Origin: Candidatus Poribacteria bacterium
GTDB lineage: Bacteria > Poribacteria > WGA-4E > JAJDTR01
DNA length: 64,000 nt
Assembly: GCA_965197465.1 (NCBI GenBank)
Contig: OZ240209.1
Coordinates: forward strand, 5,078,477 to 5,142,476
Direction of reading: 5' to 3'
Below the pieces are notes generated by a model. The model was not told where the DNA came from and did no database searches. It was given only the letters and a program-made list of their open reading frames with translations. A program made the translations under genes and the position numbers. How positions within the stretch are numbered: the stretch's first letter is position 1; each line of letters opens with the position of its first letter. Positions 28,728-43,189 of the stretch are shown here, one piece after another.

Positions 28728-30710
28728 TTAGTGAATTGAGAAGGTATAGGGCGGGATGTGGAGGATGATGCCAAGCGCGCTCCAAAAACTACCCACCACA
28801 AATTCGCCGAGGACTAGCCCCAAGAAAAACGGAATGGCTTTCCGATGAGCGCGTAACCCGCCGCATTTGATGATTACCCATTTTGCAACGGTACTAATCA
28901 CCAAGCAGAACCAGATATAGTCTGTACCAAAGTTGATGGAGAAGGCGTAGCCTGCCGGGTGAAATGGCCACCAGAGGAATCGCTGGCGCATCGCCATCAG
29001 CAGCATGGTAAAGCTAAACCCGAGCCCCATAGCTAGAACCGCACCGTAGTTTGTTCCTGACGGGTGAGACAACCCTTTGTGCATCGCCGTGAAGCCCTCC
29101 CTCCCGCTGAAGGTAAACGGCATCCCGCCTTCGTACGAATAATGCAACAGAATCCAAAAGGAGGTGGGAATTGCCACAACTGCCGCCAACATCATGCCGA
29201 TCACGAGATGCCGTAAGCCTATATTCGCCTGCTCGCCGATTTTAAGATTTTCCAAGTATTCCGGCATCGGATGACTGGGATAATTGCGGTTGAAAAACCG
29301 GAAAAGGGCAATAACACTCAGGTTCGACGCTCCCAATCGACGAGGGCCGAAAACATTTACGACGATTCCGCTTGCATTGACAGCCCACAAATTCTGGTGA
29401 GCGGGGGCACTCTCCGCACGCGCTCTCGACAATGCGAGGAATATGGCGTAGTCGATGCCGAAAAACACCACAATGACCCAAGGTGACATCCCGGCATAAT
29501 AGGAGAACCCAAAGATAAACAACATGCTCCCAGCGAGTCCTACGAATGCCCACCGCTGATGCCGTACTTCCTCCCAATTCGATGCGGTGCGGGGTCGGAG
29601 TAATCCCCGGAAAACCGTCACGAAATGTCGACGCGTGAGCCACAACGCCAGAACGGCTATGCCCAACCACGCGCCTTGGGCTTGATAATCGAAAAAACGG
29701 CCGCTGCCCCGCGGGTAACTGTGGCCGCCTGCAATGGCTACCGGTACCTGAAGTATCTTCCTAAAGAGATAGAAAAACCAGAGAGAAAAGGATAGATCCA
29801 GCGGCAGGAAAAAACTCATGCCGATGACGAAGGGATAAAACGAAATGGGAGTCCAGCCGATAGCGTTCCAAGGCGGCTCTGTGAAAAGTGGGCCAATACT
29901 GCGCAGTTTTACGTGTAGATAGGGAACAACTGGGAATAGGAAGTGGAGTCCGTTAAGGGTATCAATCCCCGCAGCAATGGCAAACCCCGCCCACAGCAAC
30001 TTTGACTTGAACACCCTAGACTGCCTGTGTGTCATCACGAGCGGCACCTGAATGACAGGATAGGCGAGTTTTTCACGCTCGACCCACTGCTTTCGGACAA
30101 TTACGCAGAGACAGAACATACCTGTGAGGAGCGCCAGGATGAACAGCGACCACCAGAAAACGGGAACAATCCACGTGAAGACGTGCAGGTCGGTGTAGAG
30201 GGTGGACTGCCCCTCGAAGAATCCCTGTACAGCGCGTTTGTCGCTGATGGTAAGCCAGGTGGGAACGTGAGGGTGGATGAGTTGCGCCCATTCATTTTCC
30301 GGGGTTGCAAACCAATGGGCATAAGGAATAGTTGGGACAAGCAAGGGGAGAAAATGATGTCCGGCAATTGAGGTTGCAACACACAGCATGGCGTAGATTG
30401 TCAATAACTCCTCGCGCCGCATCGCCCTTAACGGGGCAATCTTCTGCAGTAACCGATTGATTGACAGGAGGACGAATAGACTAAAAACGGTGTTGAAGAA
30501 TAGCGTTGTAAGTGTCGGATGCCCCGCATTCCATATATCCTCCGACATGATAACCCAGTAACAATTTAGGGGTACCAGCACCAATCCGAGCGCAATAGTG
30601 CGCCAAGGCGTGAGGGTAGAGGAACTTGGTTTGTGCGAGGACGCTTGGAATTGGCTTGGTTCAAGCGGCATGGAGTAGGCTCCATTTGTTGCAATAGCGC
30701 AGACATGCAA
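28728..30710 (-). CDS. Large polytopic membrane protein, unknown function (paralog of 61885-63816)
   Basis: More than 12 predicted TM segments. Shares ..ATPENEW.QL.., ..EREKLAYPV.., ..EPPWNAIG..FYPFVIG..LPLDL.FS.W.F.. blocks with the 61885 gene. Alternative start at 30671 (MPLEP). Confidence 0.55.
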   Translation of the reverse strand: MHVCAIATNGAYSMPLEPSQFQASSHKPSSSTLTPWRTIALGLVLVPLNCYWVIMSEDIWNAGHPTLTTLFFNTVFSLFVLLSINRLLQKIAPLRAMRREELLTIYAMLCVATSIAGHHFLPLLVPTIPYAHWFATPENEWAQLIHPHVPTWLTISDKRAVQGFFEGQSTLYTDLHVFTWIVPVFWWSLFILALLTGMFCLCVIVRKQWVEREKLAYPVIQVPLVMTHRQSRVFKSKLLWAGFAIAAGIDTLNGLHFLFPVVPYLHVKLRSIGPLFTEPPWNAIGWTPISFYPFVIGMSFFLPLDLSFSLWFFYLFRKILQVPVAIAGGHSYPRGSGRFFDYQAQGAWLGIAVLALWLTRRHFVTVFRGLLRPRTASNWEEVRHQRWAFVGLAGSMLFIFGFSYYAGMSPWVIVVFFGIDYAIFLALSRARAESAPAHQNLWAVNASGIVVNVFGPRRLGASNLSVIALFRFFNRNYPSHPMPEYLENLKIGEQANIGLRHLVIGMMLAAVVAIPTSFWILLHYSYEGGMPFTFSGREGFTAMHKGLSHPSGTNYGAVLAMGLGFSFTMLLMAMRQRFLWWPFHPAGYAFSINFGTDYIWFCLVISTVAKWVIIKCGGLRAHRKAIPFFLGLVLGEFVVGSFWSALGIILHIPPYTFSIH

Positions 30711-35832: not shown

Positions 35833-36588
35833 TGCTAGTGGGAACTCTATGGGATTTCTATCGCGCTCCTTTTAACATATGTATGGTACATTTTAGTAGA
35901 GATTAAGCTGTTGTGTCGGAAAAATTGGCACTTCCGAGATCTCGATAGGAAAAATAGGTTTCAGGATTCCTGAAACCTATTTATTTGGATTAACACCGTT
36001 GGACGCTTGAAGCGCTGCAAATTGGGGATTGATTGCCGAGAAAGCGTCTCACGCTCCGACAGTCATCGACGAGTTTGGCAAGCATTTCCTTTGTTTGTTC
36101 GGCCGAGGCTCGGTAGAGTCGGTAGAGCTTGCGCGGCGGCGGTAGGCGAAGTCGTAGTATCTGAAGGGGACACAATTCTTCATTCTGTGCGGTTCCTCCG
36201 TGCGGTACATTGTTAAGGCTGGATTGGTCAACGACATTGCAATGCTCAAGAGTTCAAAATGATTAAGTACGACCTGAAAATCTATCAGAGCGGCGAATGC
36301 ACCAAGAAGACGCAGTGCTGGGCAGATACAGCGCAGTCAGCAAAGAATTACGCCACGCGCTGGGCGATGCGGACGATCAGGTTGCCGTTGAACAAGCGGT
36401 ACCGCTGGTCGCCACTCTACAACGAGACGCGCGGCATTGTGGGCTTCGTGCGGGATTTTGTGAACTGCTCCGTTCTGATTAAAACTAACCAGAACATTAC
36501 CGTCTAAAATGGTAGTGTGCTGCAAGAGCCCGCCGGCGGCGGACGCCGGCTGATTCAATAACTTAAACGATGTTAACTAGGGAGGTTT

Positions 36589-37329
36589 ATGATGAAATAC
36601 GTTGTGTCAACACTAACGCTGCTTGCGCTTTGCTTCATGAATGTTTCGTATGGAGCGATGGGCATAAGCAGGGACAATCTGGACATTTTATCGCATTTGA
36701 AAATGGTTGAGAATTCTGAATTGGTCGTCACGGGTCGGGTGAAGAGTATGGTATTTGCGCACCGTACCAACGTCACGCCGGCCGGAGGCGGTATGCCCAC
36801 GACCGACGTCACGATCGCGGTTGACGAGGTCATCAAAGGCACCCCCAACGCGGGGGAAGAGCTTGTCACATTTATGATCGAAGGGGGCAAAGGCGTCAAT
36901 CCCGAGACCGGCGAGGGGCAGCATTTAAAGGTTACCCACCAGGGCAATTTTAAGGTTGGAGAGGATGTACTGCTTTTCCTGGGAAAGGCGGAGGGCGACG
37001 CCTACCACGCCAATTTTGCTCATGACGGGTTACATCTATATTTTGGTGATTACGGCAAGCGGCTGGTTAAGGATGATATCGTGGGGCTCTTATACGAGGG
37101 CGCGGGTAAGAGACTGAAACTTACCAAGGTGCCGGTCGATTTGGCTGTGACACTCGGGCAAGCGGCGGTGCTGGACATGGAGCGTGCCGCCCTGGTCGAG
37201 AACGTCATCAAAGCACTGGTGCTCGCCGAATCGGAAGACACTGTTTCTATCACGACGGCGATATCGGCCGTTTTGACTCAGAATGCGCAACAAATCATCG
37301 ATGACAACACCGAGTCTGAAAGCGACTAA
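36589..37329 (+). CDS. Secreted hypothetical protein (first gene of operon)
   Basis: Signal peptide MMKYVVSTLTLLALCFMNVSYGA. 246 aa with an acidic C-terminus. Confidence 0.45.
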   Translation: MMKYVVSTLTLLALCFMNVSYGAMGISRDNLDILSHLKMVENSELVVTGRVKSMVFAHRTNVTPAGGGMPTTDVTIAVDEVIKGTPNAGEELVTFMIEGGKGVNPETGEGQHLKVTHQGNFKVGEDVLLFLGKAEGDAYHANFAHDGLHLYFGDYGKRLVKDDIVGLLYEGAGKRLKLTKVPVDLAVTLGQAAVLDMERAALVENVIKALVLAESEDTVSITTAISAVLTQNAQQIIDDNTESESD

Positions 37330-37383
37330 ACCGCAAACGGGCGGCTGGTCTATTCACAACCACAAACAATAGGAGGGTATATC

Positions 37384-38067
37384 ATGTTACGGAAACGCGC
37401 GGCATTGGTTGGATTTATTTTTTGTCTGGTTCTTTCTTCCGCTTATCTCGTCTGGTCGCATTGCCACAACACGGACAGCTGCGAAGACCTGGTAAATGAT
37501 TTGGTGGCGAATCAAGCTTGGAGCAACCCTAACATCGATTACAAAGTCAATGTGCTGCATAACTATGGCAAGGATGAGTTAAGGCCAACCCTGGAAGCTG
37601 CGACTCCCGCCTGGAGCGATTTGCGCGTTAACGGGGTGGACATCGAATTTTCGTTGCACTACGCCGGGACAACGTATGAAACGCCGGGCGGCAACTCGGA
37701 CGGCGAGAATACCATAGGCTGGAGAAACTTGGGCAACGGCGACGGGTATCCATTGGCTCATACGTATACCTATTTGCACCCCACCGACTCCAGCCGGATC
37801 ATAGAATGCGATCTCGGCTTCAACTATTACCAGCCTTATGACGAGCATGGAAGTACGAACGATACGGAATATTGTATTCAAAACGTAACAACACATGAGT
37901 TTGGACATTGGGTTCGGTTGTTCGACTTAGGCCAAACTAACGGTTGTAATAGCTCCTATAGTCATTACACAATGTGGAGAACGGCTGGTAAGAACGAACA
38001 CACAAAAGAGGACCTTCGGTGCGAAGACAAGTGGGGACTGTGGTACACCTATCACGGTAGTCCGTAA
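37384..38067 (+). CDS. Secreted zinc metalloprotease, metzincin/snapalysin-like (M7/M10-like)
   Basis: Signal peptide. ..GYPLAHTYTY..ECDLGFNYYQPYDE.. then HEFGHWVRLFD (HExxHxxxxxD, Asp third ligand as in snapalysin). 227 aa, similar to the snapalysin precursor length. Confidence 0.5.
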   Translation: MLRKRAALVGFIFCLVLSSAYLVWSHCHNTDSCEDLVNDLVANQAWSNPNIDYKVNVLHNYGKDELRPTLEAATPAWSDLRVNGVDIEFSLHYAGTTYETPGGNSDGENTIGWRNLGNGDGYPLAHTYTYLHPTDSSRIIECDLGFNYYQPYDEHGSTNDTEYCIQNVTTHEFGHWVRLFDLGQTNGCNSSYSHYTMWRTAGKNEHTKEDLRCEDKWGLWYTYHGSP

Positions 38068-38079
38068 TCGCAGGTTAGA

Positions 38080-38526
38080 ATGACGTGGAGAAATTACGGC
38101 AAATCTGCCGCGGTAGGCTTTTTCTTTTGGCTGTTGGTTGCGTTGTTGCTTACGGTTCACCATTTCTGTTTCGCCCACGACGGCGACATAGGCGGTACGC
38201 ACAAGGTGCGTGATGAAGGGGTTAAGGAACATTACTATTATCACGAGCATAAAGGCAAAAATCAGTGGGGGCACGTTATTAGACATGACAAGCCCACTCA
38301 TTTTCATCGTGTGGGTCATCATATTACAGGACCGACGAAACAAGATGGGGCACCATACGCCTATGAGTTCCACTGGCACGAGGGCGAGGAAAACAACTGG
38401 CATCCGGCAGAAACAAGTGGGTGTCAAACGATTGCGGACACGGCAATGCTGCACGAGCATTCTCATGCCCATATAAACACGCCGACCACCTTTAGCTCGA
38501 CTTTGTACAAAACTGAAGGGGAATAA
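38080..38526 (+). CDS. Membrane-anchored extremely His-rich protein (putative metal-binding)
   Basis: N-terminal TM, then HHFCFAHDGD, HYYYHEHKGKNQWGH, HDKPTHFHRVGHH, EFHWHEGEENNWHP, LHEHSHAHIN. 13 nt downstream of the protease gene. Confidence 0.5.
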   Translation: MTWRNYGKSAAVGFFFWLLVALLLTVHHFCFAHDGDIGGTHKVRDEGVKEHYYYHEHKGKNQWGHVIRHDKPTHFHRVGHHITGPTKQDGAPYAYEFHWHEGEENNWHPAETSGCQTIADTAMLHEHSHAHINTPTTFSSTLYKTEGE

Positions 38527-38859
38527 GGTAAAATTAGTCGAAAAAGCAATACCATTCGACTGAGGAGGTACGCCTTGATTCCCCATTGCTAATAACGCTG
38601 GTAACTCCGTTTGAATCGTTGTTTCGACGCCCTAGCCGGGTTAAATTCCAAATCTTGATCGTTGGAGCAATTCTGTTATAACCAGTAGGCAAACAGGGCG
38701 ATGGTCACCGCAGCCTTAACGATTCGTTCGAGCAGGTCGAAAGCGTTCCTTTGTTTTCACCTTTTCGGATGCGCGCGATGATGCTTCGCACGGTATGGAC
38801 ATGCACGGTGTTGCCGGTCTCCTTCTCGAGGATAATTGCGCTAGAGTAGCTAACGCAAG

Positions 38860-39010
38860 TTGTGTGCCATTATCTATTACGCACCAAGATTTCACTTCAT
38901 CATTTGTGGTTGTCTCAATCCATAGGTTGCCCTGACTCGGCACTAATCCACGAATTGCATCAAACTCGCCCCCCAATGTGCCATGGAGACGCAACAGAGC
39001 CTGTGTCTTA
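38860..39010 (-). promoter_or_regulatory. Conserved leader element (partial copy) with truncated small-lipoprotein remnant downstream (38700-38760)
   Basis: Aligns with the 5' part of the leaders. The remnant encodes ..ERIVKAAVTIALFAYWL and lacks a start codon. Confidence 0.45.
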
Positions 39011-39560
39011 CAATTCTGGTATACTCAGCATCGGTTAATTTTGCGCAATTGTGCACCGAAGGTTTGTAGGAGCGATCTCCGAATCGCGACGGTCGGGAAT
39101 CGGAATTCCCTCCTACCACCTGCAAAACTCACGCTCCATTTCTTGACTCTAAAAAAACGCAACTTCCAACAGCGTAGAGTATAGAGCACCGGTGCTGACC
39201 TACCCTCGTGTTGGTAATACCATCACAAGAGGCATAGCCCTGTCGGAGCCATTCTCTCTTTGGCGGTGGTGTTTGCCCTAATGGACATAGCACAACCTCA
39301 ATGTCTCCTCATACCAATTCGTAATCCATAAGTTACAAGAACTGGGGGTTCGTAGTAGCGTAATTCATTGCGCGTCTCGTATCTGCTGTAACATTTAGAT
39401 TTTGAAATCGTATCAGAATTTATTATTGTCGTTCGGCAGTAGGGAATAACGATTGTTGAAAGAAGGGAAATCGACGATTTGATGATTCTCGATTTCTACA
39501 AACCCTTTGCCGCAATATCAAATTATTGCCAAAATCATCATTTTGCGCGTTCTGTGTACG

Positions 39561-40313
39561 TCAGTCCTGGCACCTGACCACGACATCGGTACTTAGCTCC
39601 AAGGCGGGGTTAATCTCAAGCAGCACACAGAGCAGCGATGTATCCACAAGGCTTTGATTGTGGTAAAGACCGAGCCCGCGCAATTGGATTAAGCCCGCCA
39701 ACGGCGTGATGTCCGTGATTTGATTATGGGCAAGGTGTAGCCAGCCTAATTGAGTTAAGCCTGCCAATGGCGCGATGTCCGCGATTTGATTGTGGGAAAG
39801 TTCTAGCTCGGTTAATTGGGTTAAACCTGCCAACGGCGTGACATCGGCAATCTGATCGTGGGAAAGGAATAGCCTGGTTAATTGGGTTAAGCCCACCAAC
39901 GGCGTGGTGTCCATAATAATTGGATTGCCCGGGTCGTCCAGAATTCGATTGTAGAAAAGCCACAACTCTCTTAATCGGGTTAAACTCGCCAATGGCGTGA
40001 TGTCTACAATCTGATTGGAGTCAAGTTCTAGCGTTGTCAGACTGGTGGCAAAATTCAAACCCGTTAAATCGCCGATGTTGCTATTTACCGCGCTAAGATC
40101 GGCCAACGTCGCCATCTCCTCGTCGGTGATGGGGGCGCCCTGCGCTTTACCGAGCGCCCGTTCAACCGCCTTACGGAGGTTGGGGTCGGGGATGTTCACT
40201 TGTACGGGGGCGGGTCGATAGCTTCCGATTAATTCTTCACGTGGATGTTCAGCCTCGCCGCAACCTGACGCGAAAAGGATGAGGAGAAAGACGAGGGGAA
40301 GCGTGCGAGTCAT
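39561..40313 (-). CDS. Leucine-rich-repeat (internalin-like) lipoprotein
   Basis: Lipobox LFASGCGE. At least eight 22-aa LRRs (LxxLxLxxNQIxDIxPLAGLTQL), encoded by near-identical 66-bp tandem DNA units around 39680-39960. Confidence 0.65.
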   Translation of the reverse strand: MTRTLPLVFLLILFASGCGEAEHPREELIGSYRPAPVQVNIPDPNLRKAVERALGKAQGAPITDEEMATLADLSAVNSNIGDLTGLNFATSLTTLELDSNQIVDITPLASLTRLRELWLFYNRILDDPGNPIIMDTTPLVGLTQLTRLFLSHDQIADVTPLAGLTQLTELELSHNQIADIAPLAGLTQLGWLHLAHNQITDITPLAGLIQLRGLGLYHNQSLVDTSLLCVLLEINPALELSTDVVVRCQD

Positions 40314-40467
40314 TTGTTTTCACCTTTCTTGATGCTTTGGATTATAGGTCTGAGGGAGCTGACTCGGATGGTGGTGCCAACGATTGTGCCGATGAGCATG
40401 ATGCCGGCGCCGAGCAGGGCGCAGGCGAGTAGGAAGATGAGCGGGGAGCGGACTTTTTCGCGTTTTT

Positions 40468-41565
40468 TCATCGTCGTTTAATGGCACCCCACGTGATGGC
40501 GGCTTTGCCGTAGGGTTGCACGGTCGGGATTGAAGCGCGATAGATGGCTCCGGGGTCGTCGGTTGCGGCGTAAAGATAGGATTGATGGGATCCGAGTGCG
40601 GTAACATGAAACTCCTCCAGACCGGCGGGAAACCACTTTTCGGATCGCTCATCAAACATGTAAACTCCGAATTCGTAGAGTCCGGTAAAGAGACGCCCGC
40701 GATTAACAGCCAGGCTTGTTATGCCTTTCGGCGGGAGTCCTTGGCTGAGATCCTCCCATGTGAGTTCGGTTTCGTTCCATCGCCCAATGCCTTCGTGCCC
40801 GACGACATATAATCGATCGTCAAGCACCGCCCAGTCGACGATTGTGCCGAAGTCGGCAATGCTGCCGCCGTCTGCCCAGTAGGGAAGACCTTCCCACATT
40901 TCGCCGTTGTCAGGGGAACGGAATGCCTGGCTACTCGAATAGGCCACCCAAAGATAGCCGTCGAACTCGGTCATCGACCGGACGCGGTGGGCTATGTAGA
41001 CGGGCGGGAATCCGCGCGGGCCGTCTCTTCCGGGCCGTATCCATTCGTCTGCGACGTTGTGCCATGTCTCGCCGTGGTTGTTGGATATATACGTGCCGCC
41101 GGTGTACCCCACTGCGATGACCGTGCCGGAGCTGGTGACGAGTATATCCGAAAAGATTGGGTATCCACTCTCTCCGTTGTCGCGCTCCCACATGCGGATG
41201 CCGTTGTTTTTGGGATTCCATGTTTCCCCGGGACTGTCGGAGCGAAATACGCCACGGAGAAACGTGGCTGCATACACAACATCCCTACTGATTGCAATTG
41301 CACTAACACCGTGTTGCGGCTCGGTTGAACGCCAGGTGTCACCGTTATCAAGGGAGATGTAGACCCCCTCCCACGTCGCGGCGTAGAGGCGTCGTCCATC
41401 GGTTTCAATCGCGTTCACGCCCCAGCCCTCCGTGCCGGGGAGTGGAATCCACTCCACCCGGATTTCGGCATGGGCGTTTGGCGCGCAAGACCTGATGGCG
41501 ATCGCCAGCAGAGCAGAGGCAATGAGAAGGCTTAACAGGGTGACGATAAAGGTTAGGAATTTCAT
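40468..41565 (-). CDS. Secreted BNR/Asp-box beta-propeller protein
   Basis: Signal peptide MKFLTFIVTLLSLLIASALLAIA. Asp-boxes. C-terminus ..QPYGKAAITWGAIKRR. Start overlaps the stop of the upstream paralog (ATGA). Confidence 0.65.
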   Translation of the reverse strand: MKFLTFIVTLLSLLIASALLAIAIRSCAPNAHAEIRVEWIPLPGTEGWGVNAIETDGRRLYAATWEGVYISLDNGDTWRSTEPQHGVSAIAISRDVVYAATFLRGVFRSDSPGETWNPKNNGIRMWERDNGESGYPIFSDILVTSSGTVIAVGYTGGTYISNNHGETWHNVADEWIRPGRDGPRGFPPVYIAHRVRSMTEFDGYLWVAYSSSQAFRSPDNGEMWEGLPYWADGGSIADFGTIVDWAVLDDRLYVVGHEGIGRWNETELTWEDLSQGLPPKGITSLAVNRGRLFTGLYEFGVYMFDERSEKWFPAGLEEFHVTALGSHQSYLYAATDDPGAIYRASIPTVQPYGKAAITWGAIKRR

Positions 41566-42608
41566 TTTTGTTTAACGGCGCCCCAGGTGGTGGCGGCTTT
41601 GCCGTAGGGTTGGATGATCGGGATTGAAGCGTGGTAGATGCCTAGGGGTTCGGTGCTGTTGCGGATTTTCTCAGAGGCTGCCGCGTACAGGTCGGATTGA
41701 TGGGATACGAGCGCGGCAATTCCGAACTCCTGCAGGCCTGCGGGAATCCATGTTTCGGAGCGGTCATCAAACATGTAAACACCGTAGTAGCGTAGTCCGG
41801 CGAAGAGACGGCCGCGATTCACTGCCAGGCTTGTAAAATGCGGCTCGTCGGTCCCGGTTTCAAGACTTTCGCTAAAATACTCCCAGGCTCGTTCGGCTTC
41901 GTTCCATCGCCCGAAACTGTACTCTCCGGCGGCGTATAATCGATCATTAAACACCTCCCAGTCGGTTATCCGGCCGTGGTTAAAGTGCCTAGTCCATTTC
42001 CAGGTTTGGCCCTTGTCAGCGGAACGTAACATGCCTCCGGTTGAGGTGGCGGCCCAAAGATAACCGTCGAACTCGGTCATGGACCAGATATTACCGCCTA
42101 GGCGACCAGATTCAACGACCCAGTCGTCGTATATGTCGTGCCACGACTCACCTCGGTTGGTGGATATATAGGTGCCGGCGTGGTACTTGCCAGCGATGAC
42201 TGTGCCGGACCGCGTGACGAGTATTTGCTCTATGGGGGAATACTGGGGCGGTCTGCCAGCGAAGGTGAATAAGGCGAATCCGGCGTTTTTGGGTTTCCAT
42301 GTGTTGCCGTGACTGTCGGAGCGAAATAAGCCGTGTTTAAATGTGCCTGCATAGACAGCATTCGTACTGATAGCAATTGCAGTAATTTCGTGGTCCGGGA
42401 GGGTTAAGCGCCAGGTATAACCGTGATCTCGGGACATGTAGAGCCCATCCCTCCTCCCGAGGTAGAGGCGGTTCTCGTCGGTTTCAAGCGTGGTCACATA
42501 ATTGATATCCTCGCCCTCAACGAGTTGCTCCCACTCGGCGTGAATCCGGGCATGGGCGTGGCTGCATCCGAGGAGGGCGATGAGTAATAGGACGAGGGTT
42601 CGTGTCAT
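41562..42608 (-). CDS. Secreted BNR/Asp-box beta-propeller protein
   Basis: Start at MTRTLVLLLIALLGCSHA (start codon at 42606-42608). C-terminus ..QPYGKAATTWGAVKQK. Confidence 0.65.
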   Translation of the reverse strand: MTRTLVLLLIALLGCSHAHARIHAEWEQLVEGEDINYVTTLETDENRLYLGRRDGLYMSRDHGYTWRLTLPDHEITAIAISTNAVYAGTFKHGLFRSDSHGNTWKPKNAGFALFTFAGRPPQYSPIEQILVTRSGTVIAGKYHAGTYISTNRGESWHDIYDDWVVESGRLGGNIWSMTEFDGYLWAATSTGGMLRSADKGQTWKWTRHFNHGRITDWEVFNDRLYAAGEYSFGRWNEAERAWEYFSESLETGTDEPHFTSLAVNRGRLFAGLRYYGVYMFDDRSETWIPAGLQEFGIAALVSHQSDLYAAASEKIRNSTEPLGIYHASIPIIQPYGKAATTWGAVKQK

Positions 42609-42619
42609 GGTGCCTCCTT

Positions 42620-43189
42620 TCAGTCGCACCAGAGGCCTAACCAAATGGTGGACGGGTCGCCAACCTTGTACGGGTTGAACTGATAACCTTCGGGCAACTG
42701 GATGTCCCCCTGATGGTACGGCAGGTGTTGGGATCGTTCGTCCATCGACTTTATTTGCAGCTCTAAGTAGGACGGTGAGTAGTCATAGCTCTCGAAAGGA
42801 CATACTTTCGAGAAGACGACGCGCTCGGATTCGAGCTCGCCTTCGGCCATGCGGACGAAACGGTCGTTTACCAAAATGTAGGTTGTGTTCGGTTTGGGGA
42901 TATCCGACGCCAGCCAGAAATAAGCGGAGCGGCGGATGGTGTTATCCGAGCGAGTCCCCCTACCCCCTCCACTGTCCTTTGGAGAAAAGCTAATGGTGGG
43001 CACCGGCGGTTCGGGGGCTGGCATAGGGCGATTATCCGTCTCGCTGCAGCCGAGGCACATGTTCAGCGCCAGGAGCAGGATGATTATGAGGTACTCGATG
43101 GGTACGCGGCTTAACGAGGCTCGTGTTCCGTGTTCCGTGGCCTCGGAAGCGTTGAACGATAAGGTAGCTAAACATGAGAATTGTGGCAT
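42620..43189 (-). CDS. Lipoprotein, unknown function
   Basis: Hydrophobic leader ..IIILLLALNMCLGCSE. The start may be a non-ATG codon upstream of MCLGC. Confidence 0.45.
   Translation of the reverse strand: MPQFSCLATLSFNASEATEHGTRASLSRVPIEYLIIILLLALNMCLGCSETDNRPMPAPEPPVPTISFSPKDSGGGRGTRSDNTIRRSAYFWLASDIPKPNTTYILVNDRFVRMAEGELESERVVFSKVCPFESYDYSPSYLELQIKSMDERSQHLPYHQGDIQLPEGYQFNPYKVGDPSTIWLGLWCD

Follow-up and report, generated by a model that had tools for sequence, protein, structure and literature searches.

Which genes at a small secreted locus of a Candidatus Poribacteria bacterium belong together, and what might one of them do to a neighbouring protease? The locus lies in a stretch of 64,000 nucleotides (the window) and consists of three consecutive reading frames, here designated A, B and C. 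The original prediction, made from the sequence alone, read them as a three-gene secreted operon encoding a protein of unknown function, a snapalysin-like metalloprotease and a His-rich membrane protein. In our analysis the protease and its upstream partner are retained, the protease is moved to another family and the third frame is set outside the conserved unit.

Layout of the locus

The three co-oriented ORFs were recovered with the positions and lengths first reported for them, together with the ribosome-binding sites of the first two:

36589..37329, + strand: gene A, ORF of 246 aa; secreted partner protein; a signal peptide, then a predicted OB-fold core of TIMP/NTR type, then a helical bundle at the C-terminus
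37384..38067, + strand: gene B, ORF of 227 aa; putative secreted matrixin-like metzincin zinc endopeptidase
38080..38526, + strand: ORF C, 148 aa; strain-specific His-rich secreted ORF, outside the conserved unit
36580..36585, + strand: Shine-Dalgarno GGGAGG of gene A, read from the sequence, 3 nt ahead of the ATG at 36589
37372..37376, + strand: Shine-Dalgarno GGAGG of gene B, read from the sequence, 7 nt ahead of the ATG at 37384

A and B are separated by 54 nt on the same strand, and both have a perfect GGAGG ribosome-binding site and a signal peptide. The codon score of A (0.275) falls inside the range of the confident genes. The gap between B and C measures 12 nt, one less than the 13 nt originally given. 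Promoter and terminator scans of the locus yielded nothing above shuffled expectation. Secreted LamG, LRR and BNR/Sortilin-like genes are neighbours of the A-B pair in the window.

Gene B, a putative matrixin-like metzincin

The features of B that bear on its assignment are the following:

37384..37458, + strand: signal peptide of B (aa 1-25, ..LVWS/HCHN); pattern kept across the family, putative cleavage site
37459..37488, + strand: N-terminal motif HCHNTDSCED (x-C-H-[ND]...C-E-[DK]); family-specific, at the predicted mature N-terminus
37894..37926, + strand: extended zinc-binding motif HEFGHWVRLFD, with H171, E172 and H175, R178 in place of Gly, and D181 as putative third ligand
37966..37974, + strand: candidate Met-turn YTM (M197), based on conservation

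The motif HEFGHWVRLFD occurs exactly where it had been placed, at 37894-37926, and its residues H171, E172 and H175 are shared by all 50 family representatives. In metzincins (clan MA(M)) the third zinc ligand, a His or an Asp, follows the first His by ten residues; at this position (181) the representatives have Asp in 38 cases, His in 11 and Asn in one, and Asp at +10 is common within the prokaryotic clade to which B belongs. The conserved downstream Met of metzincins has its counterpart, at the sequence level, in M197, which lies 16 residues past D181 and is invariant (50/50), with Y195 and T196 nearly so. The Gly at +7 of the consensus HExxHxxGxxH/D is lacking in the window protein, which has R178; among the 50 representatives, Gly occupies this position in 29 and Arg in 9. 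The exchange of Gly for Arg had been regarded as an unusual variant, a view that does not hold because non-Gly residues are common at +7 in the prokaryotic clade (53% of the close and 69% of the distant B relatives). The replacement of the turn-forming Gly by R178 nevertheless speaks against B as a standard metzincin. B evolves under purifying selection, with a dN/dS of 0.26-0.32.

Besides 16 close homologs of B, an exhaustive profile search yielded 2631 relatives. The Pfam family Peptidase_M10 was recognised in 44/51 distant relatives and, at E<=1, in 32/50 close family members (best 1.8e-7); window B itself matched no Pfam family even at E<=10 and stayed under every peptidase threshold. Searched against the PDB, the B-family profile returned metzincins only, with MMP-11 at E 0.007 and snapalysin chains at E 2.9-3.2, and the blocks upstream of the active site that had been called metzincin-like aligned to strand I and helix A of MMPs. 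By contrast, neither B nor any of the 50 family members matched Pfam M7 (PF02031), not even at E=1, and the assignment to the M7 snapalysins gives way to one close to M10. Two observations had been named that would speak against a metzincin, a lack of similarity to metzincin profiles and a non-conserved HExxH; both were looked for and neither was made. The results support the view that B is a divergent zinc protease of the metzincin type whose third-ligand position holds Asp, as originally predicted. Its sequence relationships are best explained by membership in a large prokaryotic branch of matrixin-like (M10-related) enzymes, most of them of the Asp type. An AF2 model of B built from 12 sequences (pLDDT 40) is unreliable; its order of elements, a strand, a helix, strands, the HExxH helix and a C-terminal helix, is compatible with the catalytic domain of metzincins, which has a five-stranded sheet and three helices.

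The segment that follows the signal peptide of B is strongly conserved in the family (C27 in 48/50, H28 in 45/50, C33 in 46/50 and E34 in 45/50 representatives). Cysteines are lost in pairs, C27 with C213 and C33 with C188, leaving C164 as the odd one out. The mature N-terminal segment HCHNTDSCED is thus probably pinned to the catalytic domain by C27-C213 and C33-C188 disulfides, as judged from this co-loss. A cysteine-switch mini-propeptide formed by the invariant CH...CE was considered and rejected, since the co-loss is disulfide-like. Metal binding of the ATCUN or Ni-hook type at the x-C-H N-terminus of mature B is disfavoured if C27 is disulfide-bonded.

Gene A, a predicted TIMP-like barrel

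Three parts can be distinguished in A:

36589..36654, + strand: signal peptide of A (aa 1-22, ..NVSYG/AM); hydrophobic helix 2-22, then a low-confidence linker in the model; putative cleavage site
36721..37134, + strand: predicted OB-fold beta core (aa 45-182), AF2 strands; the part common to distant and fused A-like domains
37135..37311, + strand: predicted C-terminal three-helix bundle (aa 183-241; helices 183-195, 197-213 and 223-241); Poribacteria-specific, missing from distant A-like domains

A matched no entry in Pfam/NCBIfam. Its structure was predicted from an alignment in which the fused proteins of the exhaustive search (see below) were used, and the AF2 model obtained (pLDDT 89, pTM 0.82) is that of a TIMP/NTR-type OB-fold barrel. 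In a Foldseek search of the PDB, the top 15 matches were TIMP-2, TIMP-1, agrin NtA, NTR and C345C domains, all above generic OB folds; the best was TIMP-2 bound to MMP-13 (2e2d_C, E 3.5e-4), and the TM-scores to TIMPs were low (0.29-0.50). Sequence comparisons were not significant: profile-profile alignment (hhalign) with the N-domains of TIMP-1/2/3 gave a probability of 1.7%, the A profile reached only E>=0.34 against PDB sequences, and Pfam NtA was weakly matched by 1/47 A-family members, a fused homolog (E 0.0012; 3.8e-4 in a second search). The likeness of A to TIMPs is therefore one of predicted fold only, sequence homology being undetectable.

The sole cysteine of A, C15, lies inside the signal peptide and mature A is cysteine-free. 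TIMP N-domains, by contrast, have six cysteines, which form conserved disulfides and include the zinc-binding Cys1 with its free amino group. Since mature A has none, it cannot use the zinc-chelating Cys1 wedge of TIMPs.

HMM matches of distant homologs span positions ~35-165 of the A profile, and the conserved core motifs are vv.G.V, TDvt..V..iKG, V.F.I.GG, F..GE.vLLFL and GK. In addition to the helical bundle, the Poribacteria proteins have an extra variable N-terminal stretch of ~20 residues. No lipobox Cys is conserved among the A homologs, and window A has a plain signal peptide without an anchor.

Linkage and fusion of A and B

A adjoins B in 33/34 Poribacteria copies, and tandem arrays, with as many as 4 pairs, are frequent. 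Beyond this phylum, 45/69 distant matrixin-like genes come with an A-like domain: in 14 it is fused to the protease, always at the N-terminus, in 11 it is encoded upstream and in 20 downstream. The lineages concerned include Methanosarcina, Methanoperedens, Patescibacteria, Zixibacteria, Eisenbacteria and Nitrospirae, among others. The exhaustive search added 19 proteins in which an A domain at residues ~1-170 precedes an M10 domain at ~190-400 (E 1e-19 to 1e-42). Synteny and domain fusion strongly support the earlier suggestion that the upstream protein is a partner of the protease. Near-identical strains reassort A and B alleles, the same B being found with two A alleles that are 80% identical, which argues against tight allele-specific recognition.

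An origin of A-B from a phage, as in Listeria, found no support: PHROGs gave no matches, tblastn with A-like and B-like proteins against 50,697 phage genomes found none, phage PSA is without the pair and IMG/VR contained no relatives.

Proposed mechanism and alternatives

The identity of B, its linkage and fusion to A and the predicted fold of A are direct results. From there we infer that A acts on B in trans, as a prodomain or an inhibitor. We judge it probable, if by no great measure, that A and B, in this order, make up the conserved unit as a secreted two-gene module, and that A binds exported B as a detached prodomain and keeps it latent. In B, H171, H175 and D181 would bind the zinc, E172 would serve as the catalytic base and M197 would form the Met-turn. 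Both proteins would be exported before A binds B, and B would be kept latent, perhaps also aided in its folding, until A is released or degraded. The cleft of B might be filled by the acidic loop that follows the conserved GG motif of A or by the N-terminal segment of A. The place of the A-like domain in the fused proteases, N-terminal to the catalytic domain, is that of a zymogen prodomain, which supports the prodomain reading.

A might instead be a substrate or effector that B cleaves at a specific site, setting free a TIMP-like fragment whose target might be, for instance, the cell envelope or proteins of the host matrix. In the sole bacterial metzincin/TIMP-like pair that has been studied experimentally, the Listeria metzincin cuts the TIMP-like lipoprotein at a point ~50 residues from the N-terminus, the phenotype needs both proteins and no inhibition was shown (PMC8235301), which also speaks against A as an inhibitor. 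The A-like proteins encoded downstream of the protease in Methanosarcina and Patescibacteria have an N-terminal membrane anchor and a long linker before the barrel, as a released fragment would have, and the variable N-terminal stretch and added helical bundle of the Poribacteria proteins would likewise suit a substrate. However, the classic prodomain position of the A-like domain in the 14 fused loci and 19 database proteins, the plain signal peptide of window A and the lack of a phage or mobile-element context at A-B make it rather unlikely that A serves mainly as a substrate. Cleavage and inhibition are, moreover, compatible, since prodomains are cleaved too. It is very unlikely that B is a catalytically dead pseudo-protease and A-B a binding module rather than an enzyme with its regulator. 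Such a role would account for R178 in place of the chain-turning Gly and for the failure of window B to reach any Pfam peptidase threshold, but among the 50 representatives H171, E172, H175 and M197 never vary and D/H181 hardly does, whatever the residue at +7, the clade as a whole tolerates non-Gly residues there, and B remains under the purifying selection noted above.

The three-gene reading, in which the zinc of a snapalysin-like (M7) protease is provided, buffered or held back by His-rich C, draws on the close spacing of C behind B on the same strand, on the C frame having the best codon score of all six, on the 18 His in HxH clusters among the 116 residues of mature C and on the Asp at the third-ligand position of B, as in snapalysin. 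Several of its premises changed on inspection. The His content, put at about 25%, amounts to 13.5% overall (20/148), 15.5% in the mature protein and <=22.5% in any 40-residue window, and the N-terminus, taken for a transmembrane segment, resembles a cleavable signal peptide (..FCFA/HD) rather than a membrane anchor. Among 5.8 billion proteins, the homologs of C form one cluster of 97% identity. C was found in the loci L007, L008 and L009 and is missing downstream of B in L010 and every more distant locus (L001-L006); in one strain, whose B is 78% identical, an unrelated gene takes its place. The ribosome-binding site of C is a weak AGG, its codon score (0.135) is just under those of the confident genes (0.151-0.369), and its dN/dS is uninformative, as 4-5 substitutions are too few to show selection. 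The B family, finally, matches M10 and not M7. A zinc-donor operon is highly improbable on these grounds: the conserved unit comprises only A and B, and the co-occurrence of a His-rich gene with the protease, to be expected in other genomes of an integral zinc donor, sink or inhibitor, does not extend beyond near-identical strains. C is best explained as a recent lineage-specific addition, a putative ORF that would be dispensable for the A-B module. That C is a decayed copy of A or B was rejected, as all six-frame HMM scores were negative.

Relation to known protease-partner pairs

Known precedents for a protease with a TIMP-like or OB-fold partner are Mtz-Tim of Listeria and potempin-karilysin. 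In Listeria monocytogenes, a secreted metzincin with the motif HEXXHXXGXXH/D and a Met-turn is encoded beside a secreted protein of predicted TIMP-like fold (LMRG_00713/00714), and the pair is conserved in many genomes (PMC8235301). A and B resemble this pair in arrangement and predicted fold, with a secreted metzincin gene beside a gene for a predicted TIMP-like protein, and many distant A-like genes lie downstream of the protease and encode membrane-anchored proteins, like Tim. The gene order differs, however: in Listeria mtz precedes tim and Tim is a lipoprotein, whereas window A lies upstream, lacks a lipobox and has an additional helical bundle at its C-terminus. The Listeria genes occur in a prophage or mobile-element context, unlike window A-B, whose relatives are absent from viral contigs, and tandem arrays and N-terminal fusions are undescribed for Listeria.

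In the KLIKK-peptidase/potempin system of Tannerella forsythia, the secreted OB-fold protein potempin A is encoded directly upstream of, and co-transcribed with, the MMP-like protease karilysin, which it specifically inhibits (PMC9890683). By analogy of arrangement this pair offers the closest mechanistic model for A-B, A being predicted to have an OB fold and lying immediately upstream of an MMP-like protease. Potempins are outer-membrane lipoproteins of 98-132 residues, whereas mature A has ~224 residues and is no lipoprotein, and no potempin was among the Foldseek matches of A. The third ligand of karilysin is the canonical His, in contrast to the Asp of B.

The A core finds its best structural matches in metazoan TIMP/NTR domains (MEROPS I35; TIMP-1, -2, -3, agrin NtA, PCOLCE NTR, complement C345C). 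In the short-form A domains, the mature N-terminus lies ~16 residues before the first core strand, which equals the spacing from Cys1 to LVIRAK in TIMP-1, and A, like TIMPs, is coupled, here genetically, to a matrixin-like protease. Unlike TIMPs, the A-like domain can be the N-terminal domain of the protease itself. For B, the nearest profile family is that of the matrixins (MEROPS M10A; Pfam PF00413): the alignment with MMP-1, -11 and -13 covers the active-site helix as well as the block of strand I and helix A (..Y.vN....d..aa..Ws). B differs from matrixins in having Asp instead of His as the putative third ligand, Arg for Gly at +7, no PRCGxPD cysteine-switch prodomain and a family-specific, putatively disulfide-stapled CH...CE segment at its N-terminus. 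With snapalysin (MEROPS M7), the small neutral protease of Streptomyces, B shares an HExxHxxGxxD-type motif and Asp at the third-ligand position, but mature B is larger (~200 residues versus ~130).

Distribution and significance

TIMPs are generally regarded as animal inventions. Tim of Listeria, described in 2021, is the only bacterial TIMP-like protein in the literature searched, and its authors found no earlier record (PMC8235301). The present data suggest that a matrixin-like protease with a protein of predicted TIMP fold is a widespread prokaryotic module that takes three forms, N-terminal fusion, upstream gene and downstream gene, and ranges over Poribacteria, several other bacterial phyla, and Methanosarcina and other archaea. 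For many uncharacterised prokaryotic MMP-like enzymes it offers a testable hypothesis on how latency might be achieved.

Transfers of MMP genes between bacteria, archaea and animals have been reported (PMC12587646), and given these the A-B module is relevant to how the MMP-TIMP pair arose. We consider it unlikely, nonetheless, that the A domain and the metazoan TIMP/NTR module are truly related by descent and that the animal MMP-TIMP system, or the inhibitor fold, was derived from or exchanged with the prokaryotic unit. Were it so, prokaryotes would already own a matrixin and a TIMP-like regulator, which would occur as a fused prodomain and also as the product of its own gene, and a TIMP-like barrel free of cysteines would keep metzincins latent in a new way.

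Poribacteria live in the extracellular matrix of sponges (PMC3909097). Their A-B pairs are multiplied, divergent and recombining. This habitat, the multiplied recombining pairs and the secreted LamG, LRR and Sortilin-like neighbours fit a role of A-B at the host-matrix interface.

The conserved unit of the locus

Three open reading frames (ORFs) lie in the same orientation on the plus strand, exactly where they had been predicted:

36589-37329, +, gene A (secreted partner protein), ORF of 246 aa
37384-38067, +, gene B (matrixin-like metzincin), ORF of 227 aa
37459-37488, +, HCHNTDSCED, predicted mature N-terminus of B, family-specific motif x-C-H-[ND]...C-E-[DK]
37894-37926, +, HEFGHWVRLFD, zinc motif of B, read in the sequence
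38080-38526, +, C (His-rich), ORF of 148 aa

Both A and B encode a signal peptide and are preceded by a perfect GGAGG ribosome-binding site; the ribosome-binding site of C is AGG only, and the gap between B and C measures 12 nt, not 13 nt. Pfam and NCBIfam returned no match at a meaningful E-value for A, B or C.

In the Poribacteria loci fetched, an A homolog adjoins a B homolog in 33 of 34 copies, often in tandem arrays (two pairs in L002 and L004, three in L019, four in L015; L numbers denote homolog-bearing loci from other genomes). A-B forms the conserved unit, to which C does not belong. C has one homolog cluster, at 97% identity, occurs only in the near-identical strains L007, L008 and L009, and is absent from all more distant loci; in L010 an unrelated 191-aa gene takes its place and DNA similarity to the window ends at the end of B. 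The three-gene arrangement of the original prediction is thus confined to the window and these strains, C being peripheral and outside the module.

His makes up 13.5% of C as a whole and 15.5% of its predicted mature part, and no stretch of 40 residues exceeds 22.5%, short of the approximately 25% once ascribed to C; the N-terminus taken for a transmembrane segment looks like a cleavable signal peptide instead. The codon score of C (0.135) is the best of the six frames there and lies below those of all 19 confident window genes (0.151-0.369). C may be a real young gene; a decayed copy of A or B was ruled out. A 219-aa antisense ORF (37927-38586, -), longer than C, covers C entirely together with the end of B; its codon score of -0.02 is that of non-coding sequence, and it is most likely a side effect of the many His codons on the sense strand.

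Across 37327-37386 A and B share a reading frame, the 54-nt spacer holding no stop except the TAA of A, and the stop-to-stop ORF of B begins at 37330. Read-through of the TAA would recreate the fused A-B architecture known from other phyla; the shared frame is probably a coincidence, since the frames differ in L004. An 82-aa ORF upstream of A (36259-36507, +), a possible gene that gene calling also reports at L007 and L009, has a GC3 of 0.76, a borderline codon score of 0.154 and no Pfam match. Short intergenic elements, which may be REP- or MITE-like repeats, flank the A-B-C block (35872-35985, with a perfect palindrome of 14-bp stem at 35952-35982, and 38807-39021), and several copies recur in L010.

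The protease

A word-indexed search of 5.8 billion proteins yielded only 16 relatives of B, one named Candidatus Poribacteria, and a PDB sequence search yielded no match. An exhaustive profile search recovered 2631 relatives at E<=1e-3, 59 of them at E<=1e-30; among 185,579 reference species the full-length family occurs only in Candidatus Poribacteria genomes. The PDB matches of the family profile were metzincins only, the best being MMP-11 (E=0.007), followed by MMP-1, -13, -8, -2, ulilysin and mirolysin, while snapalysin reached E about 3. The alignment takes in the active-site helix as well as the strand/helix-A block at the N-terminus. Pfam assigned the M10 label to 32 of 50 close-family representatives (best 1.8e-7), followed by M43 and the reprolysin families, and to 44 of 51 distant relatives (Peptidase_M10); M7 did not appear among the close-family labels. 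Of the snapalysin-like metalloprotease originally proposed, the protease and its metzincin similarity are therefore upheld, with M10 as the nearest family, and the assignment to M7, of which B is not a member, is given up.

The proposed zinc motif is present in B, and H171, E172, H175 and M197 are invariant in the 50 close-family representatives, so that HExxH is conserved, as the original prediction required. Position +10 after the first His of HExxH (D181 in B) is Asp in 38 of these and His in 11, a swap of the kind a metal ligand would show, and at position +7 (R178) 29 have Gly and 9 have Arg. Among all relatives recovered, Asp at +10 predominates (57 of 81 close, 46 of 55 distant) and the +7 residue is other than Gly in 53% of the close and 69% of the distant relatives, which makes the Arg, formerly regarded as an unusual variant, ordinary for the branch. 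The dN/dS of 0.26-0.32 indicates purifying selection on B. Based on the M10 matches, the Asp majority at +10 and the frequent non-Gly residues at +7, it was concluded that B is, by its sequence, a divergent member of a large, mainly Asp-type prokaryotic branch of matrixin-like metzincins; all sequence hallmarks of an active metzincin are present. B is nearest to the M10 matrixins and would work like them, but it falls outside M10 in being below the Pfam threshold, in its Asp ligand and in having no cysteine switch. Since its AlphaFold model (alignment of 12 sequences) was unusable, with a pLDDT of 40, its fold and geometry are inferred.

Five cysteines of B are nearly invariant among the 50 representatives, and their rare losses are paired, C27 with C213 and C33 with C188; C164 is lost alone. 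In our reading, two disulfides (C27-C213 and C33-C188) would pin the N-terminal segment to the catalytic domain. A cysteine switch in the N-terminal motif was rejected because the losses come in pairs.

The A domain

The interesting part of the locus is the upstream gene A, which the original prediction overlooked beyond naming its product as a possible substrate or partner of the protease; a partnership is strongly supported by the adjacency and by N-terminal fusions elsewhere. Next to distant matrixin-like genes of many phyla, an HMM of A picks up an A-like domain that corresponds to profile positions ~35-165. At 69 loci outside Poribacteria, the domain is fused in the same ORF at 14, always N-terminal to the catalytic domain, and is encoded by a separate upstream gene at 11 and a separate downstream gene at 20 (Methanosarcina, Methanoperedens, Patescibacteria, Nitrospirae, clostridia); at the other 24 the HMM detected none. 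Independently, the exhaustive search with B recovered 19 multi-domain proteins in which the A domain at residues ~1-170 precedes M10 at ~190-400 (E 1e-19 to 1e-42). A-B is an obligate genomic pair in Poribacteria and a single polypeptide elsewhere. The fixed order in fusions, together with the variable gene order when separate, is strong evidence for a direct functional link between the A-like domain and the protease.

With these A-M10 proteins as the alignment, AlphaFold produced a confident model of window A (pLDDT 89, pTM 0.82). In it a signal helix and a pair of short helices precede the beta core (45-182), and a Poribacteria-specific bundle of three helices (183-241) forms the C-terminus. 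In a Foldseek comparison with the PDB, TIMP-2 (both free and bound to MMP-13 or MT1-MMP), agrin NtA, PCOLCE NTR, TIMP-1 and complement C345C fill places 1-15 (E 3.5e-4 to 2e-2) with modest TM-scores of 0.29-0.50; generic OB folds (ribosomal proteins, SSB) rank below them. A is thus predicted to have a TIMP/NTR-type barrel, and one fused homolog has a sub-threshold Pfam NtA match. Homology to TIMP cannot be demonstrated from the sequence: against verified TIMP-1/2/3 N-domains, hhalign gave a probability of only 1.7%, though the alignment pairs the equivalent first strand and strand-KG segment. TIMPs are defined by a mechanism in which the amino and carbonyl groups of a disulfide-held Cys1 bind the zinc. 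Mature A contains no cysteine, which excludes this mechanism; the likeness to TIMP is one of predicted fold. Short-form A domains have a conserved mature N-terminus, A|[LV][VM]xKK, about 16 residues before the first core strand, a spacing equal to that of TIMP-1. This N-terminus and the conserved GG-x-V-G-[DE] loop are candidate cleft contacts, to be taken as leads only.

Proposed latency or cleavage

In the proposed model, A and B would both be exported and A would bind B as a detached prodomain or inhibitor, keeping B latent and possibly helping it to fold; latency would end once A is removed. The fused A domain occupies the position of a zymogen prodomain, and the logic would be, by analogy, that of potempin A-karilysin, in which the gene of an OB-fold inhibitor lies immediately upstream of, and is co-transcribed with, that of an MMP-like protease (PMC9890683). 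The main rival is taken from Listeria Mtz-Tim, in which the metzincin cuts a TIMP-like lipoprotein and thereby sets an active fragment free (PMC8235301). In archaea and Patescibacteria, the A proteins of the anchored, downstream type bear a closer resemblance to this system. Latency and cleavage are not mutually exclusive.

The window was compared over 36589-38067 with L007, L009 and L010, strains otherwise ~96% identical. Between the window and L007, A and C are 97% identical (dS 0.03 and 0.01) and B 78% (dS 0.57), whereas L007 and L010 share an identical B allele and have A alleles of different groups, about 80% identical. This mixing among near-identical strains indicates that A and B are reassorted by recombination, and at this divergence such reassortment speaks against recognition that is strictly allele-specific. 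It points to frequent recombination or gene conversion between A and B, possibly from paralogous pairs. Over long distances the identities of A and B co-vary (r=0.93; 0 of 2000 permutations reached the observed value), but co-inheritance alone would yield this correlation.

Listeria and other Firmicutes are already known to have a metzincin paired with a TIMP-like protein, and Tannerella a protease with an OB-fold inhibitor encoded upstream. Relative to the literature searched, the wide occurrence of the protease/A-domain association in bacteria and archaea, the fusion of the A domain to the N-terminal side of the protease, and the Poribacteria expansion with its extra A helical bundle and stapled B N-terminus appear to be new. 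In L057, L062 and L074 (Methanosarcina) and L077 (Methanoperedens), each archaeal MMP-like gene has a membrane-anchored A-like gene after it; L057 has two such pairs. Archaeal MMP-like genes are treated as horizontally acquired in PMC12587646, in which a search for inhibitor, prodomain and adjacent genes found no mention of A-like neighbours.

Genomic neighbourhood

The A-B-C block is surrounded by genes of secreted Laminin-G, LRR and BNR/Sortilin-Vps10-like proteins and by no phage genes, and viral contigs and phage genomes contained no relatives of the A-like or B-like proteins. Poribacteria abound in the extracellular matrix of sponges and have many eukaryote-like surface proteins, including the LRR family found near A-B (PMC3909097). 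Processing of host matrix or surface proteins is a plausible candidate role.

The LRR protein (39561-40313, -) has 250 aa in the window and 360 aa in L007 and L009; matches of 39653-40428 to these loci in many shifted registers indicate repeat copy-number variation. Tandem paralogs (40468-41565, -; 41562-42644, -) encode secreted BNR/Sortilin-Vps10-like proteins of ~360 aa, and similar genes of 360-369 aa recur near A-B pairs in L001, L002, L007, L009 and L010, so that the protease module may be loosely associated with this family. In the distant Poribacteria loci L003 (2336-9975) and L004 (463-10427), the A-B pairs have as neighbours repeated coiled-coil proteins of 114-123 aa that bear a transmembrane helix at the C-terminus, a 251-aa protein (faintly GH108-like), a Tricorn_N/PD40 protein and fragments of transposases; in L002 a similarly built 96-aa protein is encoded upstream of the pair. 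Unrelated to A-B, a 660-aa protein (28728-30710, -) matches DUF6785 (E 5e-157) and DUF6784 (2e-33).
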